Shown: piece by piece, positions 24,029 through 32,360 of the stretch | How positions within the stretch are numbered: the stretch's first letter is position 1 | How the letters are laid out: each line of letters opens with the position of its first letter | Assembly (NCBI RefSeq): GCF_003334305.1 | Contig: NZ_QOWS01000012.1 | Source of the DNA: Escherichia coli | Lineage (GTDB): Bacteria > Pseudomonadota > Gammaproteobacteria > Enterobacterales > Enterobacteriaceae | Length of the DNA: 64,000 bases | Direction: 5' to 3' (one strand) | Notes under the pieces: generated by a model | The model's database searches: none | Told to the model about the DNA's origin: nothing | The model's input: only the letters and a program-made list of their open reading frames with translations | Made by a program: the position numbers and the translations under genes

Positions 24029-24072
24029 TAATCTTTACCCGGCAAACATGTGTTTTGCCGGGTTGTCGCTGA

Positions 24073-24942
24073 TTATTTTATTGGGCACAGTTTGTTACGA
24101 TCTGGAAATAGTGTTGCCAGCGAACCAGCCAGAGTTTTCCAGTCCGTAGCCATTTTTTCTGCTTGTGCAGTTGTTATTACTGCACCTTGTTGTTTAATAA
24201 GCTCATCCTCCACTCTGGTATAGTGAATAATGGTAAAATCCGTAGAGGACCATTTATCCTTAGAGAACATCTTCGTCATCGCATGAATGTTTGCTTGCCC
24301 GTCATCGATAAAAACAATCGCGTCATATTTGTTCCCCATTTTATCCAGCATATAATCGAGAATTACGCCTTTATCTTGCCCGGAAGAAAAAAATACCCCC
24401 TGGCTGTACAGCCATGACCGTTTGAGTTTCCCTTTTTCAAAGGGTGGCAAAGTATCCTCTTTCTTCCTGAGTGCGGAAGACGAAAAATCAATGCCGTTTC
24501 GCTTTAATTCCCGCAATGTCGGAAAGAGAGTATCCGGTGCACGGGATGTCAGAGCAAAAGCGGTATGCTTTTGTTGCCACTGTTTTAACATTGTCGGTAA
24601 CTGTGGCTCGGTAAGCTGCATAGGGCTAAGTTCGTAAAGCATACTGATTGTATTTTCATACAGGCAGGGAACTTTTTGCGAGTCATCCGGCTTTAAGGGC
24701 AATTTATCGGTTTACCATTGATACCAGATATCACCGCCAATGCGTGTGCCACTCGTTAATAACGTATTATCAATGTCAAAAACCAATAATATCTTATCGG
24801 ATGGATAGAGAGTTTCCTTTTCGGTGATAATTTTACTGACCGCACTATATTCGCCAGTAACTATATTTTTTACCTGTGCGTAAGATAAAGCTGGCAGAGC
24901 AGAGAGTATCATCCAGAGAATGATTTTAAATTTATTATTCAT
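24073..24942 (-). pseudogene. Secreted HAD-superfamily phosphatase interrupted by one in-frame TAA (24712-24714)
   Basis: ORF 24712-24942 carries signal peptide plus HAD motif I DIDNT; ORF 24073-24702 continues in the same frame with motif IV FIDDGQ; the two are separated only by the stop. Confidence 0.65.
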
Positions 24943-24955
24943 TTTTTATTCCAGA

Positions 24956-25690
24956 TTAGAAAGTATAAGTCAGACCCCAGCGCCAGCGGATTTGGCGATT
25001 ACTTGATGTTTTATCCACACCTTTATAATCCGCAATACTCATATAGGGTATCCACGATCCCATTTTGTACCCTACTTTAAATGATGCGGTATAGTTTTTA
25101 TGGCCATCATTCCAGGTTAAATAACCATTATTGTAATAGACCAGGTTTAACTGATATTGGAAGTTGGTTTTTTGTGGTCGATAGTCGATCCACACATCGT
25201 AACGGCGGTTATTACGATCATCGTTGCCATAACCTTTGGATTTATCGGTAGCTTTATCCATGTCATAACGAAAACGACCCGAAACTTTCCATTCTTTGCT
25301 GAAATCATAACCCGCAGAAAGACCATATTCGTAAGTTGACCAATATTGCGTGGTATCAAGCCAGAACATGGGTTCTAACCAGAATTTTTTGTCATCCAGC
25401 GGCTTAAAGCGGTAAACAACAGATAATCCTGTTCCGTTATTGCCAAATTGTGAGGGGTCCCACTTATCTTTATCACCTTCATCGGTGTTATAGCGTAATT
25501 CTCCCATCAAACCGATACCATTACTAAAAAATGTACCAAATTCAACGCGGTCCGCGTGGGTGCGAGTATCATCAAGATACTCATGACGATAATCAATAAA
25601 TCCATGCGGCTGTTCTGCACAGACTAGTGTAGGTGACAGGCAGGATAACATTGTTATTCCTGCAAGTGATATTTTAAGATAAGAATTCAT
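24956..25690 (-). CDS. KdgM/NanC-family small outer membrane porin (tentative)
   Basis: 244 aa; signal peptide; alternating aromatic/hydrophilic beta-strand pattern; C-terminal ...WGLTYTF. Confidence 0.6.
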   Translation of the reverse strand: MNSYLKISLAGITMLSCLSPTLVCAEQPHGFIDYRHEYLDDTRTHADRVEFGTFFSNGIGLMGELRYNTDEGDKDKWDPSQFGNNGTGLSVVYRFKPLDDKKFWLEPMFWLDTTQYWSTYEYGLSAGYDFSKEWKVSGRFRYDMDKATDKSKGYGNDDRNNRRYDVWIDYRPQKTNFQYQLNLVYYNNGYLTWNDGHKNYTASFKVGYKMGSWIPYMSIADYKGVDKTSSNRQIRWRWGLTYTF

Positions 25691-25785
25691 AATATTCCCT
25701 TTCAGAATAAAATATATTTTTGGTGATCGAATACACCATCTGATGATTCCAGGTATTAGAATGTTTTTTTATCTATAGTTTGACT

Positions 25786-26910
25786 TTAAATTTTAAGTTT
25801 GTTTTCCTTATCAATGAATAGATAAAATTTCGTCTGTTGATGGGGCTGGAAATTATTATCAGATACAAATATTAACGATGTATGCCCATCAATCAGAGGA
25901 CCGAAGGTTACCCCTTCAATACAATCCGCAGAGGAAGTGTAATCAGCAAAATCAATTAATAATTTTTTACTGACGGGTTGTAACGTGGATTTATTGGACC
26001 AATCTTGCAGACTGTCAATATCCTTGATATCGCTGGCAGCAGTTAAATCGACCATATAAACTCTGACAGAGTAATCCCAGTCATTGAACCCAGCACTGAC
26101 GTTTCTGCCGGAACGTTCGATGACCAACAATTGGTGATCATTCAGCGCCAGGACCTCGGATACGCCATTATCATTAATACCGAACTTACTCACTTGCGGA
26201 ACAGGATCAGTAATATAGAGATATTCATGCAATTGCTTTGAAGGTCGACCGTCTGCATCTATAGAAAATTGCAGTAAGCGTGATGTACCTGAATTTATTG
26301 GACTTGCAATAGGCCCATCCTGTTTAAGGCTGCTTTCAACGGCGATAAAAAGTGATTTTCCATCTGGTGTAACTGTCAGGCCCTCCCAGGCGTTGCCGCT
26401 GCGAATACCATTGCTGCTCTCTTTGTCAGAACTAATATTAAATCGAGCAGGAAATAAAGACGTAAAATCTTTCTCCATTACGCCATCGAGAGTGCTCAGA
26501 CGCAGTGGAGCACCTAACTCCGAACTCCATAGTAATGACTTACCATTGTGTGTCAGGGCCAGACCTTCGGCATCCACCGTATTGGTCACGAAAGGCTGCT
26601 GTTTTGCATCAAGCAGTGGACGCTGGTTGAGAAAATTCACTTGCTCAATGCCCCTGGATGATACCTGTATTTTTAGTGTATAAAGACTGGCATCTCCTTC
26701 TTTATTATTGTTTCTGCTATCGTTAATAGCATAGAAAATATTTTTTTTTGCATCAAATGTGATGGCTGATAGCCCCGCGATTGTAACATTGTTCTGTTTT
26801 TCTCCCGTCCGGAAGTTGAACTCACCAGCATAATGAAGAAAACTGTTTGCCTGCGCTGTTGTGCATAACAGCGGTAATGCCAGAAAAATAGCGGCATGTC
26901 TTATTTTCAT
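25786..26910 (-). CDS. Secreted protein, probably beta-propeller; phytase-like/esterase family assignment tentative
   Basis: 374 aa; signal peptide MKIRHAAIFLALPLLCTTAQA; repeated EGL..T.DGKSL-type segments. Confidence 0.55.
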   Translation of the reverse strand: MKIRHAAIFLALPLLCTTAQANSFLHYAGEFNFRTGEKQNNVTIAGLSAITFDAKKNIFYAINDSRNNNKEGDASLYTLKIQVSSRGIEQVNFLNQRPLLDAKQQPFVTNTVDAEGLALTHNGKSLLWSSELGAPLRLSTLDGVMEKDFTSLFPARFNISSDKESSNGIRSGNAWEGLTVTPDGKSLFIAVESSLKQDGPIASPINSGTSRLLQFSIDADGRPSKQLHEYLYITDPVPQVSKFGINDNGVSEVLALNDHQLLVIERSGRNVSAGFNDWDYSVRVYMVDLTAASDIKDIDSLQDWSNKSTLQPVSKKLLIDFADYTSSADCIEGVTFGPLIDGHTSLIFVSDNNFQPHQQTKFYLFIDKENKLKI

Positions 26911-26939
26911 GATATTTACCTTTGTGTATGTATCTGATT

Positions 26940-27854
26940 TTAGTCGTGTTGTGAAAGAAAAAGATTAACTTCCGATGGTGTCGCCAGATGACCTCTGGCA
27001 CCTAATGCAGTAATATTTATTGCTGCAGTGGCAGAAGCAAATTTTAGTGCTTCAATTAAGGGCATGTTTTTTATTAAGCTATAAACAAATGCACCATTAA
27101 AAGTATCTCCAGCGCCAGTGGTATCAATAATGGGAATTGTATAGCTACCTATTTTTACTTGCTCATTGCCTTTGACTGCAATTACTCCCCTAACATCCAG
27201 CGTAACCACGACAGCCTCAAGTTGATACTCGTCTTGTATATCATGCAGAAGTGTAAAATCTGGCTCTGCTGCATAGCCACGAATAAAACCGTCATAATTA
27301 AATATCGCAATATCAGCAAGGTGTAAAATTCTGGCAAGGTGTTCAGGTGTTGCAATGATATGAGGCTCAATATCAACGACAACTTTTGTCATCTGGCTAC
27401 GGGAATATTCGGCCAGCATACGAAATTTCTCGATATCTGCTGGCATCGTATAATAATAACGGCTTTGCGCAATTGCCTGCAGGGCTTTTTCTTTATCCCA
27501 CTCATGATCACTACCAGGCGAGTAAACCAACGTTTTTTCACCTAATTCATCAATAAAGATAATCGCGGTATTGGCAATCAATTCCGGAATTACCTGAACG
27601 AAATCACAATTTACATGATATTTTTTAAATCCATCAAGAATGATCGAGGCTGAATGATCATTGCCCACACATGAAACAGATACCACATTGAGACCCAGTT
27701 GTCCCATCGCACAGGCACTGTTGGCGACTGTGCCGCCAGCTTGTTCACCCAGACGTGTCCCGACCACTTTACCGCCACGAGTGGGGAGTGACGGGATAGA
27801 TAAAAAAATATCTATATTTCCACTGCCTAAAGCGGCGACATCAAATTTCTTCAT
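26940..27854 (-). CDS. PfkB-family carbohydrate kinase
   Basis: Starts MKKFDVAALGSGNIDIF at ATG 27854 with gggaga SD; C-terminal PfkB signature DTTGAGDTFNGAF. Confidence 0.8.
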   Translation of the reverse strand: MKKFDVAALGSGNIDIFLSIPSLPTRGGKVVGTRLGEQAGGTVANSACAMGQLGLNVVSVSCVGNDHSASIILDGFKKYHVNCDFVQVIPELIANTAIIFIDELGEKTLVYSPGSDHEWDKEKALQAIAQSRYYYTMPADIEKFRMLAEYSRSQMTKVVVDIEPHIIATPEHLARILHLADIAIFNYDGFIRGYAAEPDFTLLHDIQDEYQLEAVVVTLDVRGVIAVKGNEQVKIGSYTIPIIDTTGAGDTFNGAFVYSLIKNMPLIEALKFASATAAINITALGARGHLATPSEVNLFLSQHD

Positions 27855-27858
27855 AGTC

Positions 27859-28857
27859 TTATTTCTCCCTATGGCTAACGCGTTGCCCGCCTGCGTCGAC
27901 ATAATCACAACTTAAATGCCAGCACATTTCATATAACCACTGCATGACCAGAAATAAATTGTTGGACTCACTGGCATCAGGTATAAAACTGATTAATTCT
28001 GCTGTCGCTCCCTGTTCAACAATTGCTTTTTGGGTTGCAATGTAAAATGGGTACTCGCGGGATGTAGCTGGCAGTAAAAAATAATGCTGACCGACACCAG
28101 CCTGATGTAAGCGTAATGAATGATAAAATTCTTCCAGTGGAAAGGCTGTCGCACGAATCTGTGGGCCGCAAGAAAGTAAATTGCTCCCCGATATTGCTAG
28201 TCCCCAACTTAAGCCACTCCCCAGAAACGTTATCTCTTTTTGTTGGTAAAAATGGCGCTTCTTTTGCTGCCAGTGCTGATTAATCTGGCTAAATTTCCCT
28301 TCTAAATCCTCTTCAATTTGCAGTGGTGTTAAGCCTGGACATAAGTTTTGCGCTAAGCGCAGGAGGGTATAAAGTGTGACGCTACTACTTTGCGTTGGAA
28401 TACCCTGCTTATTCGCCCATGTATAGAGCATGTTTTCTGTTATTGCGCAAAATGGTGTTCCAGGGCAATTCGTCACACCCAGCACTTGCGCGTTTGAGCA
28501 TACTGCGTGGCTAAGGGCGTCAACGGTCAGTGATGGTCTGCCACTTGCGCTGAGAATAATGATCAACGTTTCTTTCTGATAACGGGTTAAATCAGTCTGA
28601 AGAAAATCCCACGTTTGCAATGCGGAACAAAACAGATGTGTGTATTTCCCCAGCCAGGCGGCGGCACATAGTGCCACCGTCCAGGAGTCGCCCGATCCCA
28701 CTATACAGACGCGTTCAACAGCACGTTTATCGAGCTGAACAGATGAAAAACATTCACCCCAGATAGCTGCCAAATGGCGTAGCGCTGCCGCCGTTGCATT
28801 TATTTCCTCACGAGTTTGCGCTAATGGCATAACAGGAGCACGGGCTGGCATGTTCAT
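27859..28857 (-). CDS. Double SIS-domain sugar-phosphate isomerase/deglycase-like protein (FrlB/AgaS-like)
   Basis: 332 aa; two SIS-like halves (VGSGDS..., ILSASG...; FLGSGLSWG...); start ATG overlaps upstream stop (TAATG); 4 nt before kinase start. Confidence 0.7.
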   Translation of the reverse strand: MNMPARAPVMPLAQTREEINATAAALRHLAAIWGECFSSVQLDKRAVERVCIVGSGDSWTVALCAAAWLGKYTHLFCSALQTWDFLQTDLTRYQKETLIIILSASGRPSLTVDALSHAVCSNAQVLGVTNCPGTPFCAITENMLYTWANKQGIPTQSSSVTLYTLLRLAQNLCPGLTPLQIEEDLEGKFSQINQHWQQKKRHFYQQKEITFLGSGLSWGLAISGSNLLSCGPQIRATAFPLEEFYHSLRLHQAGVGQHYFLLPATSREYPFYIATQKAIVEQGATAELISFIPDASESNNLFLVMQWLYEMCWHLSCDYVDAGGQRVSHREK

Positions 28858-29933
28858 TATTTCTCCTGTGCCTGTACTGCAAGCAATGTCAGACCCGATG
28901 CGATCGCTTCAACATCGAAATCTTTATTATTTACGGCGCGGAAAAAGGCATATTTATCTTCAGGGAGCGCATCAAAACCGCGCCATGCCCCTGCAATTGC
29001 GCCTGCCATCGTAGCGATGCTATCGGTGTCATTGCCAATATTGGCGCAGGCATGGATGGTTTCCCAGGGTTCTCCTTTGCAGTACAGCAATAGACCGATT
29101 GCCGCAGGAATGGATTCATGGGCGGCAACAGAGTTACCAACCAAACCTTCCATTTCTCGCAGACAAGACTCCAGATCATTGGCACGTCTGGCGATGTCCG
29201 CTGCAAGTTGGATGCGCATGGCGATAGATGGCCCTGCTACACATCGTGCATATTGTTTGGCCAGGCGTTCGCCGTAATTCGCTCCCCAGATTGCGGCATC
29301 CAGTAATGATGTGAGCGAGGCTTCTGGTAACATAGCCTGCGATGTCGCTGCAGCGATGGCGCAAGCGCTGGCAATCGCAATATTGGTGTCATGTGAAGGT
29401 AGGCAAGTTATTAACGCCAGGCGACACGCTTTTTCTTTCTTGCCAGGCCAGATCAATCCTGCCGGGGCTACACGCATTCCTGCGCCATTCGTGGTGCCGA
29501 CATTGGGGGCCTGACGAGAAGATGTTCCAATACGCCCAATGGTGTTTGTTGGTCTACCTTCTTTTAGTGCCTTGACGATTTGTTCTGTTGTGGGGCCTTT
29601 ATAATTTGCGTAGGGCTGCATATCGGCCCAACGCAGAAGACAAGCTAACCAGTCATTATTGGTGAAGTTATCAAATCCAGCCTCAATTAACCCTTCTGAA
29701 AACACATACATTTGGCTGGAATCGTCGGTGATAAGTCCTGCAACACCATTTAATGAGCCAGCAAAGGTATCGGCAGGAGGAGAAACAAAGGCATTTAAAA
29801 AACCTCCCCATTGAGTTTTTATTTCATCAATGCTGTAGAGTTCAGTCGCTGCGCCTAATGCATCGCCCATACCTGCGCAGGCTAAAGAACCTAATATTTT
29901 GTTATAAATTACGGCTTGTTCTATTTTGTTCAC
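28857..29933 (-). CDS. ADP-ribosylglycohydrolase-family protein
   Basis: 358 aa; N-terminal GSLACAGMGDALGAATE and C-terminal IGNDTDSIATMAGAIAGA typical of the family. Confidence 0.7.
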   Translation of the reverse strand: MNKIEQAVIYNKILGSLACAGMGDALGAATELYSIDEIKTQWGGFLNAFVSPPADTFAGSLNGVAGLITDDSSQMYVFSEGLIEAGFDNFTNNDWLACLLRWADMQPYANYKGPTTEQIVKALKEGRPTNTIGRIGTSSRQAPNVGTTNGAGMRVAPAGLIWPGKKEKACRLALITCLPSHDTNIAIASACAIAAATSQAMLPEASLTSLLDAAIWGANYGERLAKQYARCVAGPSIAMRIQLAADIARRANDLESCLREMEGLVGNSVAAHESIPAAIGLLLYCKGEPWETIHACANIGNDTDSIATMAGAIAGAWRGFDALPEDKYAFFRAVNNKDFDVEAIASGLTLLAVQAQEK

Positions 29934-29946
29934 AATATTCTCTCTG

Positions 29947-30699
29947 TTACACGCTAAAACTGTCTTTTGTAATTCGTGCTTTGTAGGAGTACCGACTTGC
30001 GGGATAAACCATCTCTACATACTCCATTGGTTTACGTTCCACGGATAACGTGACGCGGGTACAACTTAATACGACGTCATCGGCAGTCAGTTCCAGTAAT
30101 TGACGCTCAAGGGGCGAGGGAAGCCGGGCAGAGATAATCTCCGTTGCTTCTAAAGGTTTAATAGCGAGTTTTTCTTCCAGTAAAATATAGAGCGAACCCG
30201 TCGCCAGCAGCTCTTCCAGAGTTATTTCTTGTCCGTCATTTAACGCAAGCCATGATGTCTGAATACCCAGCGGCGTACTTCCCATATAGCGAATGCGTTT
30301 TATACAGAAAACGGTATGGACATGGATATCAAGTTCGAGATTTTTTCTGATAATATCACTGAGAGGAATATAACCTATTTCAAGAATATTCTGTGCCGGT
30401 ACGCCACCACGAGCCTTAATGTCATCAGTAAAACTATGTAATAAATGATTTTCCCGACTGCGAGCCGGTAATGTAAATGTTCCTTGCCCGTGGACACTAT
30501 GCAGGTATCCGCGTTGTTTCAAACTTTCTATTGCTTTCCGAATTGTTGTTCTGCTGCTTAAAAAATGTTCAGCCAGTTCTCTTTCTGTTGGTATAGCTTT
30601 GCCTTCTTTCCATTCACCGTTATCAATTTTTTTCTTTATTTCATCAAAAATTTCACGATGCTTTAGCTGACCTTTACTGGCTTTATAAATTCTTATCAT
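29947..30699 (-). CDS. GntR/HutC-family transcriptional regulator
   Basis: 250 aa; N-terminal winged-HTH (PTERELAEHFLSSRTTIRKAIESL) and UTRA-like C-terminal domain; first gene of the minus-strand operon. Confidence 0.8.
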   Translation of the reverse strand: MIRIYKASKGQLKHREIFDEIKKKIDNGEWKEGKAIPTERELAEHFLSSRTTIRKAIESLKQRGYLHSVHGQGTFTLPARSRENHLLHSFTDDIKARGGVPAQNILEIGYIPLSDIIRKNLELDIHVHTVFCIKRIRYMGSTPLGIQTSWLALNDGQEITLEELLATGSLYILLEEKLAIKPLEATEIISARLPSPLERQLLELTADDVVLSCTRVTLSVERKPMEYVEMVYPASRYSYKARITKDSFSV

Positions 30700-30717
30700 G
30701 ACAAAGCCTCATTTCAA

Positions 30718-30729
30718 GTGGTTGATACC
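30718..30729. promoter_or_regulatory. Candidate HutC-type operator TGGTTGATACCA upstream of the GntR gene
   Basis: TGGT-N4-ACCA palindrome about 20 bp upstream of the regulator start codon. Confidence 0.35.
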
Positions 30730-30881
30730 AACTTTACATTCTTTTATTTTTATTGCGCAGTATGCTTATTTGTTATCTGTGACATAAAACAGGAAAAACC
30801 ACATTTATTAATAAATATCATGCGGTTAAGTGAAATTGGTTTTTATGTGATGCTGCTCAATATTAACTCAGTGGTTTGTTG

Positions 30882-30893
30882 TGGTATCTACCA
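30882..30893. promoter_or_regulatory. Candidate HutC-type operator TGGTATCTACCA upstream of the symporter gene
   Basis: Second TGGT-N4-ACCA palindrome about 95 bp upstream of the transporter start. Confidence 0.35.
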
Positions 30894-30985
30894 ATGCATT
30901 TATTCTCAATCGTAAAGTTATGTGCTGAATGAGTTCCGATACATTTGTTTTTAATATAATTTCATGTGATTAATGAGTGCTGTGT

Positions 30986-32317
30986 ATGAAACTGACAATA
31001 AATGAAAAGATAGGTTTTGGTGCCGGTGATATGGCCATTGCGATAGTAATGATGTCTTTAGCCATGATCATCACTTATTTTTACACGGATGTATTTGGTC
31101 TGAAACCCGTCGACTTAGGTATTCTGTTATTTTCTGTACGTATTCTTGATGCTGTGATTGATCCAGTTGTGGGAACAATGACAGACATAACGAATACACG
31201 TTGGGGAAAATATCGGCCATGGTTGCTTTTTATGTCAATACCGTTTGGGATAAGCATTTGGTTGATGTTCACCACACCTGATACCGATTATTCAGTTAAG
31301 CTTTTATGGGCCTGGGCTACCTATGTGTTACTTACCTTGACCTATACGTTAATCGCTATTCCTTATGTTTCATTAATCAGCGTTATCACGGATGATCCAC
31401 AAGAGAGATTGAGCGCCAATGGTTATCGTTTTGTTATGACAAAAATTGCCATGTTCGCCGTAACAATTATTGTTCCTTTATCTGCAATGTATCTTGGGAA
31501 GAATAACGTACAACTGGGTTATCAAATAGCAATGGGGACAATGGGTATTCTGGCAACGTGTTTATGCCTGTATTGTTTTTTTAGCGTGAGAGAGCGCATC
31601 TACCATCCAAAACCCAGTCTCGGTATGGCCGCGCAGTTTCGGTTACTGATCAAAAATGATCAATGGCTCATTTTGGGCGCTGTAATTGCGATCATTATGT
31701 TTGGCGGGATTATTCGTAACTCTGTCGCTGCATATTATGCAAAATATTACCTGAGTGGTGGGGATGCTTTAATTTCACCGTTTTTAACTTCAGGCGTGAT
31801 CGCCTCAGTTCTGGCTATGATCGCTTGCACCTGGCTTACTCGTCTCTATGACAAAATAAAAATATTTCGTTATACCCAATTACTGGCGTTCGTGGTGGGT
31901 GGTGCGATGTATTTCGTGCAACCAAATTCTATAGTGCTAGCTTTTACATTTTATATTGTGGTGACTTTCCTGACGGATATCCAGCTTCCCATTTATTGGG
32001 CATCCATTGCTGAGTCCGTGGATTACGGTGAAATGAAAACGGGGCAACGTGTTTCTGGCCTGGCATTTGGCGGGATTCTCTTTTTCCAAAAGTTCGGTAT
32101 GGGGCTGGCAGGGGGCTTTATCGGAATCGCTTTAGCCTATCTGGATTATCAACCAGGCGTAGAACAAACACCACAGGCGCTGTGGGGGATCTGCCTGTTA
32201 ATGACGATCATTCCCGCGATACTTAACCTGCTTACCGGACTCATCATGAGATTTTATCTGATTAATAATGAATATTACGAACAGATAAAAGCACGGTTAC
32301 AAACGGCGGAAGAGTGA
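30986..32317 (+). CDS. GPH-family (MelB/UidB-like) glycoside:cation symporter
   Basis: ~443 aa, ~12 hydrophobic helices; divergent from the GntR operon; GTG at 30977 is an alternative start. Confidence 0.75.
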   Translation: MKLTINEKIGFGAGDMAIAIVMMSLAMIITYFYTDVFGLKPVDLGILLFSVRILDAVIDPVVGTMTDITNTRWGKYRPWLLFMSIPFGISIWLMFTTPDTDYSVKLLWAWATYVLLTLTYTLIAIPYVSLISVITDDPQERLSANGYRFVMTKIAMFAVTIIVPLSAMYLGKNNVQLGYQIAMGTMGILATCLCLYCFFSVRERIYHPKPSLGMAAQFRLLIKNDQWLILGAVIAIIMFGGIIRNSVAAYYAKYYLSGGDALISPFLTSGVIASVLAMIACTWLTRLYDKIKIFRYTQLLAFVVGGAMYFVQPNSIVLAFTFYIVVTFLTDIQLPIYWASIAESVDYGEMKTGQRVSGLAFGGILFFQKFGMGLAGGFIGIALAYLDYQPGVEQTPQALWGICLLMTIIPAILNLLTGLIMRFYLINNEYYEQIKARLQTAEE

Positions 32318-32325
32318 AAATAAAT

Positions 32326-32352
32326 GGCCGGCAAGCAGCACCGGCCTCTTTT
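32326..32352. terminator. Terminator hairpin between convergent symporter gene and ygiN
   Basis: ggccgg-caagcagca-ccggcc followed by tctttt. Confidence 0.6.
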
Positions 32353-32360
32353 CAGAAATA

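Follow-up and report, generated by a model that had tools for sequence, protein, structure and literature searches.

The stretch of DNA examined here is a 64,000-nucleotide piece of the Escherichia coli contig NZ_QOWS01000012.1 (assembly GCF_003334305.1), to which we will refer as the window. It carries an accessory island in which two adjacent minus-strand genes, encoding a KdgM-family porin and a secreted beta-propeller protein of Pfam family PF13449, lie between a set of catabolic genes and the gene of a predicted periplasmic phosphatase. A first-pass annotation had singled out these two open reading frames, and they are found as described there, on the minus strand and downstream of a PfkB kinase gene, with identical coordinates in RefSeq. 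In this paper we report that porin, propeller and periplasmic phosphatase constitute a separable, conserved module, and we weigh what this module may admit into the cell. The features of the island, with positions in the window, are the following:

24029..32360, no strand: whole accessory island, 8.3 kb between the convergent genes parE and ygiN
24073..24942, minus strand: DUF2608 gene, predicted periplasmic HAD-like phosphatase (Pfam DUF2608, E = 6.6e-60), a pseudogene here
24956..25690, minus strand: KdgM-family outer-membrane channel, 244 amino acids (Pfam PF06178; PDB 4fqe)
25786..26910, minus strand: secreted (periplasmic) PF13449 'phytase-like' beta-propeller, 374 amino acids, putative metal-dependent phosphoesterase
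26940..27854, minus strand: ribokinase-like PfkB kinase, cytoplasmic (NCBIfam, PDB)
27859..28857, minus strand: double-SIS-domain protein of a diverged GlmS/FrlB-like subfamily (GlmS domain match)
28857..29933, minus strand: ADP-ribosylglycohydrolase (ARH)-family hydrolase, cytoplasmic (PDB MJ1187, ARH3)
29947..30699, minus strand: GntR/HutC-subfamily regulator with UTRA effector domain, first gene of the predicted minus-strand operon (NCBIfam)
30719..30730, no strand: operator-like palindrome TGGTTGATACCA, 20 bp upstream of the regulator start codon
30882..30893, no strand: operator-like palindrome TGGTATCTACCA, ~93 bp upstream of the symporter gene
30986..32317, plus strand: GPH-family cation symporter, inner-membrane importer (TIGR00792 gph, 346 bits versus a cut-off of 231)

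The island interrupts a chromosomal gene order that reads tolC-nudF-yqiB-cpdA-yqiA-parE on one side and ygiN-mdaB-ygiZ-qseCB on the other. Its GC content is 0.40-0.48, compared with 0.53-0.54 in the flanks, and no mobility genes were found within it (24029-32360). Of 5,426 complete E. coli genomes, 405 contain the full stretch (~7.5%, about 1 in 13) and 408 the porin-propeller pair, chromosomal in every case. Because both genes are intact in 406 E. coli genomes (98.8-100% nucleotide identity) and possess orthologues in other genera, we regard them, on this sequence conservation, as real conserved genes and not chance open reading frames. In some genomes (H23-H25, H31, H34) the two-gene region is matched over 1,954 rather than 1,955 bases, and the same matches bring an additional 'hypothetical protein' annotation; a 1-bp indel may break porin or propeller in a minority of strains.

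The minus strand carries, in order of transcription, the genes of the GntR/HutC regulator, the ARH-family hydrolase, the double-SIS protein, the PfkB kinase, the propeller, the porin and DUF2608, while the GPH symporter lies divergently on the plus strand. The gaps from kinase to propeller, from propeller to porin and from porin to DUF2608 measure 29, 95 and 13 bp, respectively, and no minus-strand terminator was predicted in any of the three. Since the gaps are short and without predicted terminators, the simplest reading is an operon of seven genes that begins with the gene of its own repressor and whose members would all be co-transcribed. An anti-phage defence role was ruled out, as no PADLOC matches were obtained, and likewise a riboswitch or other known RNA element, as there was no Rfam match at E <= 0.1.

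The assignment of the 244-amino-acid protein (RefSeq: 'porin') to the KdgM family, which the first-pass annotation had based on its size and C-terminal YTF, is confirmed by a full-length match to Pfam KdgM (PF06178, E = 3.6e-30), residues 31-244 aligning with positions 9-222 of the 222 in the model. KdgM is also its closest solved relative: the crystal sequence from Dickeya dadantii (PDB 4fqe) is matched over the whole mature length (chain residues 3-216, E = 1.4e-11), and no match to NanC was obtained at E <= 1. The N-terminus (...TLVCA|EQPHG), judged by eye like all signal peptides of the module, resembles a Sec signal peptide, whose removal would leave a mature protein of ~219 amino acids ending in YTF; orthologues in other genera (34-82% identity) end in YTF, YSF or YSW. 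Aligned with KdgM and six orthologues, the porin runs end to end with few gaps and keeps the family motifs, the shared blocks being IDYRHEY, R-x-R strands (common to KdgM), W-PY and RQ-R-x-R-x-G-x-Y-[ST]-F. In a single-sequence AlphaFold model 12 strands follow the signal peptide, at a predicted local distance difference test (pLDDT) score of only 36; as this model is unusable, the family assignment is taken from the profile and the pairwise alignments, which suggest a 12-strand barrel. A channel activity selective for anions would be in keeping with the family. No NCBIfam model was found for porin, propeller or DUF2608.

Similarly, what had been a tentative placement of the 374-amino-acid protein in PF13449 is now secured by a match at E = 1.3e-67 covering model positions 3-284 of 284, and its RefSeq name is 'esterase-like activity of phytase family protein'. 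It carries the anticipated signal peptide, recognised from sequence, and structure prediction yields the anticipated fold, a confident beta-propeller (pLDDT 91). Foldseek searches against AFDB50 returned only unannotated PF13449 proteins (template modelling (TM) scores 0.80-0.91), those against PDB only generic WD40-type and other propellers with low TM scores, and no sequence relative was found in PDB. The earlier label 'phytase-like' holds for the Pfam family and not beyond it, as similarity to the classical, Bacillus-type beta-propeller phytases (BPP, Pfam PF02333) was not found. Over 48 homologues 25 residues are invariant, 11 of them Asp or Glu, as expected of a metal-dependent active site; 24 of the 25 are retained in Vibrio, and orthologues in other genera share 47-70% identity.

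Clues to the chemistry of the propeller come from its relatives. A 42%-identical PF13449 homologue sits among two GDPD genes, a UgpC/MalK-like ATPase and a HAD protein, and relatives in AFDB are fused to endonuclease/exonuclease/phosphatase (EEP) domains. These neighbours and fusions, together with the constant pairing of propeller and phosphatase in the cluster, point to phosphoester chemistry, and by gene association the propeller is probably a metal-dependent phosphoesterase. A Klebsiella pneumoniae protein of 442 amino acids (P0043) is annotated with both a SIS (PF01380) and a PF13449 domain, which is probably a frameshift or deletion joining neighbouring cluster genes and not a true fusion.

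The third member of the module, missed by the first-pass annotation, is the DUF2608 gene immediately downstream of the porin, which RefSeq flags as a pseudogene. One C->T substitution turns its codon 77 into a stop (CAA->TAA, Q77*), which is also present in RefSeq strain A7, while E. coli 14EC029 has an intact 289-amino-acid allele with only 5 other base differences. Besides the DUF2608 profile itself, there are a weak HAD_2 match (E = 0.02) and a faint one to Acid_phosphat_B; the sequence has a signal peptide, HAD motif I DxDxT (FDIDNTLL) and the motif FIDDG, no relative was found in PDB, and DUF2608 was not mentioned in the literature that our search retrieved. From these motifs the product would be a periplasmic HAD-like phosphatase. 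In other loci the corresponding gene encodes a UshA-type 5'-nucleotidase, two of which score 672 and 745 bits with NCBIfam against the curated UshA cut-off of 600. The cluster 5'-nucleotidases also match the NadN model (E = 1e-25 to 2e-28) and are signal-peptide proteins or lipoproteins.

To place the island in a wider context, related loci were gathered through homologues of propeller and porin, and their gene content was scored by tblastn. Eleven loci contain the ARH-family hydrolase, the SIS protein, the PfkB kinase, the GntR regulator, the propeller and the KdgM porin, namely those of E. coli (two alleles), Klebsiella oxytoca, two Kosakonia, Enterobacter sp. BIGb0383, Trabulsiella odontotermitis, a Yersinia frederiksenii plasmid, a plasmid with flanking insertion sequences (IS; locus L010), a metagenomic enterobacterial contig (L011) and Vibrio vulnificus. 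The GPH symporter is present in ten of them and is replaced in V. vulnificus by a Bmp-family ABC importer. Counting Vibrio harveyi, all 12 loci, from at least seven genera, combine KdgM with PF13449, and each of the 12 has exactly one periplasmic phosphatase, DUF2608 in six and UshA-type in six. In V. harveyi (L022, 9932-12850) the KdgM/PF13449/DUF2608 operon stands alone, with no catabolic gene within 10 kb; it adjoins phage-like AlpA and YagK genes. Neither a porin nor any other cluster gene accompanies PF13449 in seven more remote loci (27-42% identity). Sec-type signal peptides are found on the porin, the propeller, DUF2608, the 5'-nucleotidases and a Tsx-family channel, and on none of the deaminases encoded in some of the loci. 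Given the stand-alone trio, the co-occurrence in all 12 loci and the absence of a porin from the distant PF13449 loci, porin, propeller and periplasmic phosphatase are a separable, conserved module, and the case is therefore stronger than the pairing originally suggested.

This module is mobile among Enterobacterales and Vibrio. Indeed, the whole cluster is plasmid-borne in L010 (CP158823.1) and in Y. frederiksenii (L014, NZ_MT039225.1), with IS6, IS3 and IS21 transposase genes on both sides. A scan of genome contigs added only three orthologous loci, so that the cluster is rare among species-representative genomes. In Kosakonia (L004, 12792-14093, minus strand; and L005) the gene directly downstream of the cluster encodes 433 amino acids with a weak Pfam match to ART (ADP-ribosyltransferase); such a match beside an ARH-family hydrolase is intriguing but was seen in this genus only.

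The lesion in DUF2608 raises the question of whether the E. coli island is a decaying or hitch-hiking remnant, i.e. a set of intact reading frames on horizontally acquired DNA that no longer serves a working pathway in this strain. The nonsense mutation here and in strain A7, the restriction of the island to 7.5% of genomes, and the lack of the Tsx-family, deaminase and UshA genes of other loci could be explained in this way. However, the other seven island genes are intact and share 95-100% protein identity between divergent E. coli alleles, and DUF2608 was inactivated by one recent base substitution, its allele in 14EC029 being intact. E. coli has, moreover, a chromosomal ushA, which could substitute for DUF2608, as the alternation of the two phosphatases among loci suggests. 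Decay is thus very unlikely.

A shared-word search over the divergent promoter regions yielded the palindrome TGGT-N4-ACCA, an exact match to which is expected about once per 65 kb. A pair of these palindromes, 154-179 bp apart, is present in the divergent promoter of every one of the ten enterobacterial loci (nine non-redundant loci scanned), and the pattern TGGTRTNKACCA, with up to one mismatch, has 12 matches in the window versus 2.55 expected. The motif resembles operators of the HutC subfamily, e.g. the dre site of DasR/NagR. In Klebsiella the porin belongs to a separate XapX-deaminase-KdgM-DUF2608 operon, whose promoter region has a palindrome pair of its own, and both Vibrio loci have a single copy 49-69 bp upstream of kdgM. 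In V. harveyi this copy, TGGTAGGTACCA, precedes the operon by 69 bp and there is no GntR gene within 10 kb, so the regulator of the stand-alone trio must have its gene elsewhere. The palindromes imply one GntR/HutC regulon over catabolic and envelope genes, and a HutC-type GntR regulator is predicted to be common to both. CRP-like sites score slightly above shuffled sequence. In the propeller-porin gap (25721-25738), ~30 bp upstream of the porin ribosome-binding site, TGGTGTATTCGATCACCA has TGGT/ACCA half-sites 10 bases apart instead of 4; it may represent a weak hairpin or have arisen by chance.

The promoters also bear on the alternative that the trio mainly frees inorganic phosphate from periplasmic organophosphates, its linkage to sugar catabolism being secondary. 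In diatoms and cyanobacteria, PF13449 proteins are reported to be induced by phosphate limitation or secreted; one homologue lies in the GDPD/Ugp-like cluster mentioned above, the V. harveyi trio stands alone, and every version of the module includes a phosphatase. Against this, Pho-box matches in 11 promoter regions are no better than in shuffled sequence, and Pho-regulon control was accordingly rejected, while the HutC-type palindrome is found even on the stand-alone Vibrio operon. Moreover, 11 of the 12 trios are embedded with transporter, hydrolase, kinase and SIS genes, which is sensible only if the organic moiety is the prize. We therefore consider phosphate scavenging unlikely as the main purpose.

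The first-pass annotation proposed that the porin lets the substrate of the adjacent operon in through the outer membrane and that the propeller processes it in the periplasm. This proposal is supported, with the phosphatase as a further member of the module. It is favoured by the retention of the gene set in all 11 loci with catabolic genes, by the palindromic operator that precedes the catabolic genes as well as the porin-containing operons (the separate one of Klebsiella included), by gaps of 13-95 bp with no predicted terminator, and by the existence of the envelope genes as an operon of their own in V. harveyi.

The catabolic genes themselves belong to recognisable families. The ARH-family enzyme, with 65-80% identity across genera, surpasses all other proteins of the cluster in conservation; it matches MJ1187 (E = 2.9e-21) and ARH3 (E = 3e-10) in PDB and NCBIfam DraG (E = 7e-11), and retains the TDD and DTDS metal-binding motifs. 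The kinase, which has a DTTGAGD motif, scores 142 bits with the NCBIfam ribokinase model, under its cut-off of 299.65, and has ribokinases as best PDB matches (4x8f, E = 1.3e-30; 1gqt, E = 5e-28). Orthology to STM4066, the aminoimidazole riboside (AIRs) kinase of Salmonella, was rejected (1tyy, E = 7e-13 versus 1e-30 for the ribokinases). The SIS protein, with an NCBIfam GlmS isomerase-domain match of E = 6e-11 and PDB matches to 3tbf and 3fkj at E ~2e-6, is the least conserved core component (30-49% identity). Its orthologues (L002, L004, L010, L011, L014) all keep the motifs SASGRPS, MPTQS, NLLxCGPQ and LEE[FY]xH[AS]LRL, and an invariant Cys takes the place of the 'LKE' glutamate of the GlmS isomerase domain. 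The regulator matches the NCBIfam models HutC, PhnF and TreR (E = 1e-24 to 1e-30), and its orthologues carry Pfam GntR+UTRA.

As to the substrate, the first-pass annotation had assumed an acidic or oligomeric sugar, in keeping with KdgM-type channels. This corresponds to a classical system of the KdgM/NanC type, importing an oligogalacturonide, sialic acid or sulfosugar, in which the propeller would be an esterase, lyase or mutarotase like NanM/NanS and no phosphate chemistry would take place. Apart from the porin family, however, the loci speak against it: pectin, uronate, sialate or sulfosugar genes were found in none of the 12, a phosphatase or nucleotidase is always in the module, and the hydrolase of the cytoplasm belongs to the ADP-ribosyl (ribofuranoside) type. 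The accessory genes that vary from locus to locus are instead all nucleoside- or nucleotide-related, comprising UshA-type nucleotidases, Tsx-family channels (in L011, L015 and L021), XapX, adenosine deaminases and the Bmp ABC importer. The adenosine-deaminase-family genes (L002, 12434-13567; L004, 2329-3348; L010, 2536-3708) represent two unrelated lineages with 26% mutual identity; the Kosakonia enzyme exceeds the curated adenosine deaminase cut-off (474 versus 459), and a XapX-domain membrane protein of 54-55 amino acids usually adjoins the deaminase gene. The Bmp family binds nucleosides (PMC7093131). Because of these accessory genes a phosphorylated nucleoside or riboside is the more likely substrate, and import of an acidic sugar in the classical manner appears quite unlikely. 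A capsule or teichoic-acid (ribitol-phosphate) substrate was set aside, as it leaves adenosine deaminase, XapX, Tsx-family and Bmp genes unexplained.

We therefore favour the reading in which the envelope trio admits and dephosphorylates a phosphorylated nucleoside or riboside, whose neutral glycoside is then imported and catabolised under a HutC-type repressor, and we assign to it a probability of roughly 0.55. The anionic substrate would cross the outer membrane through the KdgM-type channel, predicted to be 12-stranded, a specificity that is proposed here. In the periplasm the PF13449 propeller and a second phosphatase, DUF2608 in E. coli (dead in this strain) or a UshA-type 5'-nucleotidase in other species, would remove the phosphate or nucleotide handle. 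The resulting neutral glycoside would be taken up by the GPH symporter (the Bmp ABC importer in V. vulnificus) and cleaved in the cytoplasm by the ARH-family hydrolase; the released pentose would pass to the ribokinase-like kinase for phosphorylation and to the diverged SIS enzyme, and in loci with a deaminase the adenine moiety would be deaminated. The whole set would be repressed by the HutC-type GntR regulator at the paired TGGT-N4-ACCA operators.

Several points weigh against this reading. Oligogalacturonates and sialic acid are the solutes known for KdgM-family channels, and we know of no porin in the family for a nucleotide-type substrate; GPH symporters usually carry glycosides, not nucleosides. 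The porin model has a pLDDT of only 36, and the signal-peptide calls were made by eye. The best structural neighbours of the propeller span several different chemistries, so that its designation as a phosphoesterase derives from association, and to our knowledge no close PF13449 protein has a demonstrated activity. The scheme does not account for the SIS protein, which appears to represent a diverged SIS subfamily and lacks the catalytic Glu of GlmS. Finally, the E. coli island itself has no nucleoside-specific accessory genes, and its DUF2608 is a pseudogene in this strain.

In a more specific form of the favoured reading, the island would be devoted to the consumption of ribosyl-nucleosides derived from ADP-ribose. 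The candidates would be phosphoribosyl-AMP, 2'-O-ribosyladenosine from poly(ADP-ribose), products of TIR enzymes (cyclic ADP-ribose (cADPR) isomers, pRib-AMP) and ADP-ribosylated conjugates. The KdgM-type channel would admit the nucleotide, the propeller and UshA or DUF2608 would strip the pyrophosphate or phosphate, and after import by GPH or Bmp-ABC an ARH3-like cut of the ribose-ribose or ribose-X bond would leave the remainder to ribokinase and adenosine deaminase. Such a substrate fits because of the ARH3-like chemistry and the cytoplasmic deaminase; the idea is speculative, and we rate its chances as low. If true, KdgM-family porins would gain their first nucleotide-specific member and PF13449 proteins their first defined activity.

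Since it is plasmid-borne or IS-flanked in other genera, the cluster may be seen as a mobile trait for niche adaptation in bacteria associated with gut, plant and marine habitats. We know of no substrate for the ARH/SIS/PfkB trio, and the comparative data make this orphan cluster testable: operator and regulator are defined, the envelope module comprises three genes, and the candidate substrates are few.

Elsewhere in the window, a second low-GC stretch (6034-12120, minus strand; GC 0.40-0.42) is a chaperone-usher fimbrial operon with an 837-amino-acid usher resembling StdB and a fimbrial-like subunit above the NF007276 cut-off. It is followed by ribB, zupT and ygiD, with nothing out of the ordinary.

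A literature search (PF13449, DUF2608, ARH + SIS + kinase, ARH + ribokinase + porin, KdgM + nucleoside, ARH + Tsx) retrieved no description of the cluster. Its closest architectural precedent is nanCMS of the E. coli NanR sialoregulon, in which the KdgM-family porin NanC and periplasmic sialate-converting enzymes are co-regulated with nanATEK by a GntR-superfamily repressor (PMC3658417). In nanCMS, as is proposed for the island, the porin shares one operon with periplasmic enzymes that convert an incoming compound for an inner-membrane symporter, and the catabolic genes are co-regulated by a GntR-superfamily repressor with operators at each promoter. NanM, too, is a beta-propeller. The components nevertheless differ, with a Kelch-type NanM and an SGNH esterase in place of PF13449 and a HAD/UshA phosphatase, a FadR-type NanR in place of a HutC-type regulator, NanATEK in place of ARH/SIS/PfkB, and sialic acid in place of an apparently phosphorylated nucleoside-like substrate.

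A second comparison is offered by KdgM/KdgN and TogT of Dickeya and Yersinia (KdgR regulon), the KdgM family of Yersinia being described in one report (PMC5559549). Here the same porin family recurs, and a KdgM-type channel is likewise paired with a GPH symporter; the island differs in having phosphatase partners and nucleoside-related accessory genes and in lacking KdgR and any pectinolytic or 2-keto-3-deoxygluconate (KDG)-pathway genes. TogT belongs to the GPH family. In chemical logic the island resembles the uptake of nicotinamide adenine dinucleotide (NAD) by Haemophilus influenzae, which relies on the porin OmpP2, the periplasmic nucleotidase NadN, the class C acid phosphatase e(P4) and PnuC. 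There, too, entry is through a porin, and enzymes of the UshA/NadN family and a HAD acid phosphatase trim the nucleotide so that the riboside alone is imported. The Haemophilus genes are scattered, however, and serve cofactor salvage, whereas those of the island lie together with a channel of their own, a PF13449 propeller, catabolic ARH, kinase and SIS genes and one repressor.

The idea of the cytoplasmic core recurs in two systems whose natural substrates are undefined as well. Salmonella stm4065-4068 combines a transporter, an ARH-family hydrolase, a PfkB kinase and a GntR regulator. The same composition, under a GntR repressor, is found in yegTUV-GgaR of E. coli (PMC10819704). Neither system is orthologous to the island, and both are devoid of the SIS protein and of the entire envelope module. 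Finally, the rus polysaccharide utilization loci (PULs) of Bacteroidetes combine an outer-membrane uptake device and ribokinases with variable ribose-releasing enzymes, including ADP-ribosylglycohydrolases and nucleoside hydrolases, and scavenge ribose from nucleosides, ADP-ribose and similar compounds (bioRxiv 10.1101/574913). They share with the proposed pathway the scavenging of ribose with ARH enzymes, and differ in their SusC/D-type uptake, phylum and regulators, with no PF13449 propeller reported. None of the systems compared uses PF13449 or DUF2608, and the island is a familiar uptake design, with a specific porin, periplasmic trimming, a symporter, catabolism and one repressor, assembled from unfamiliar parts.

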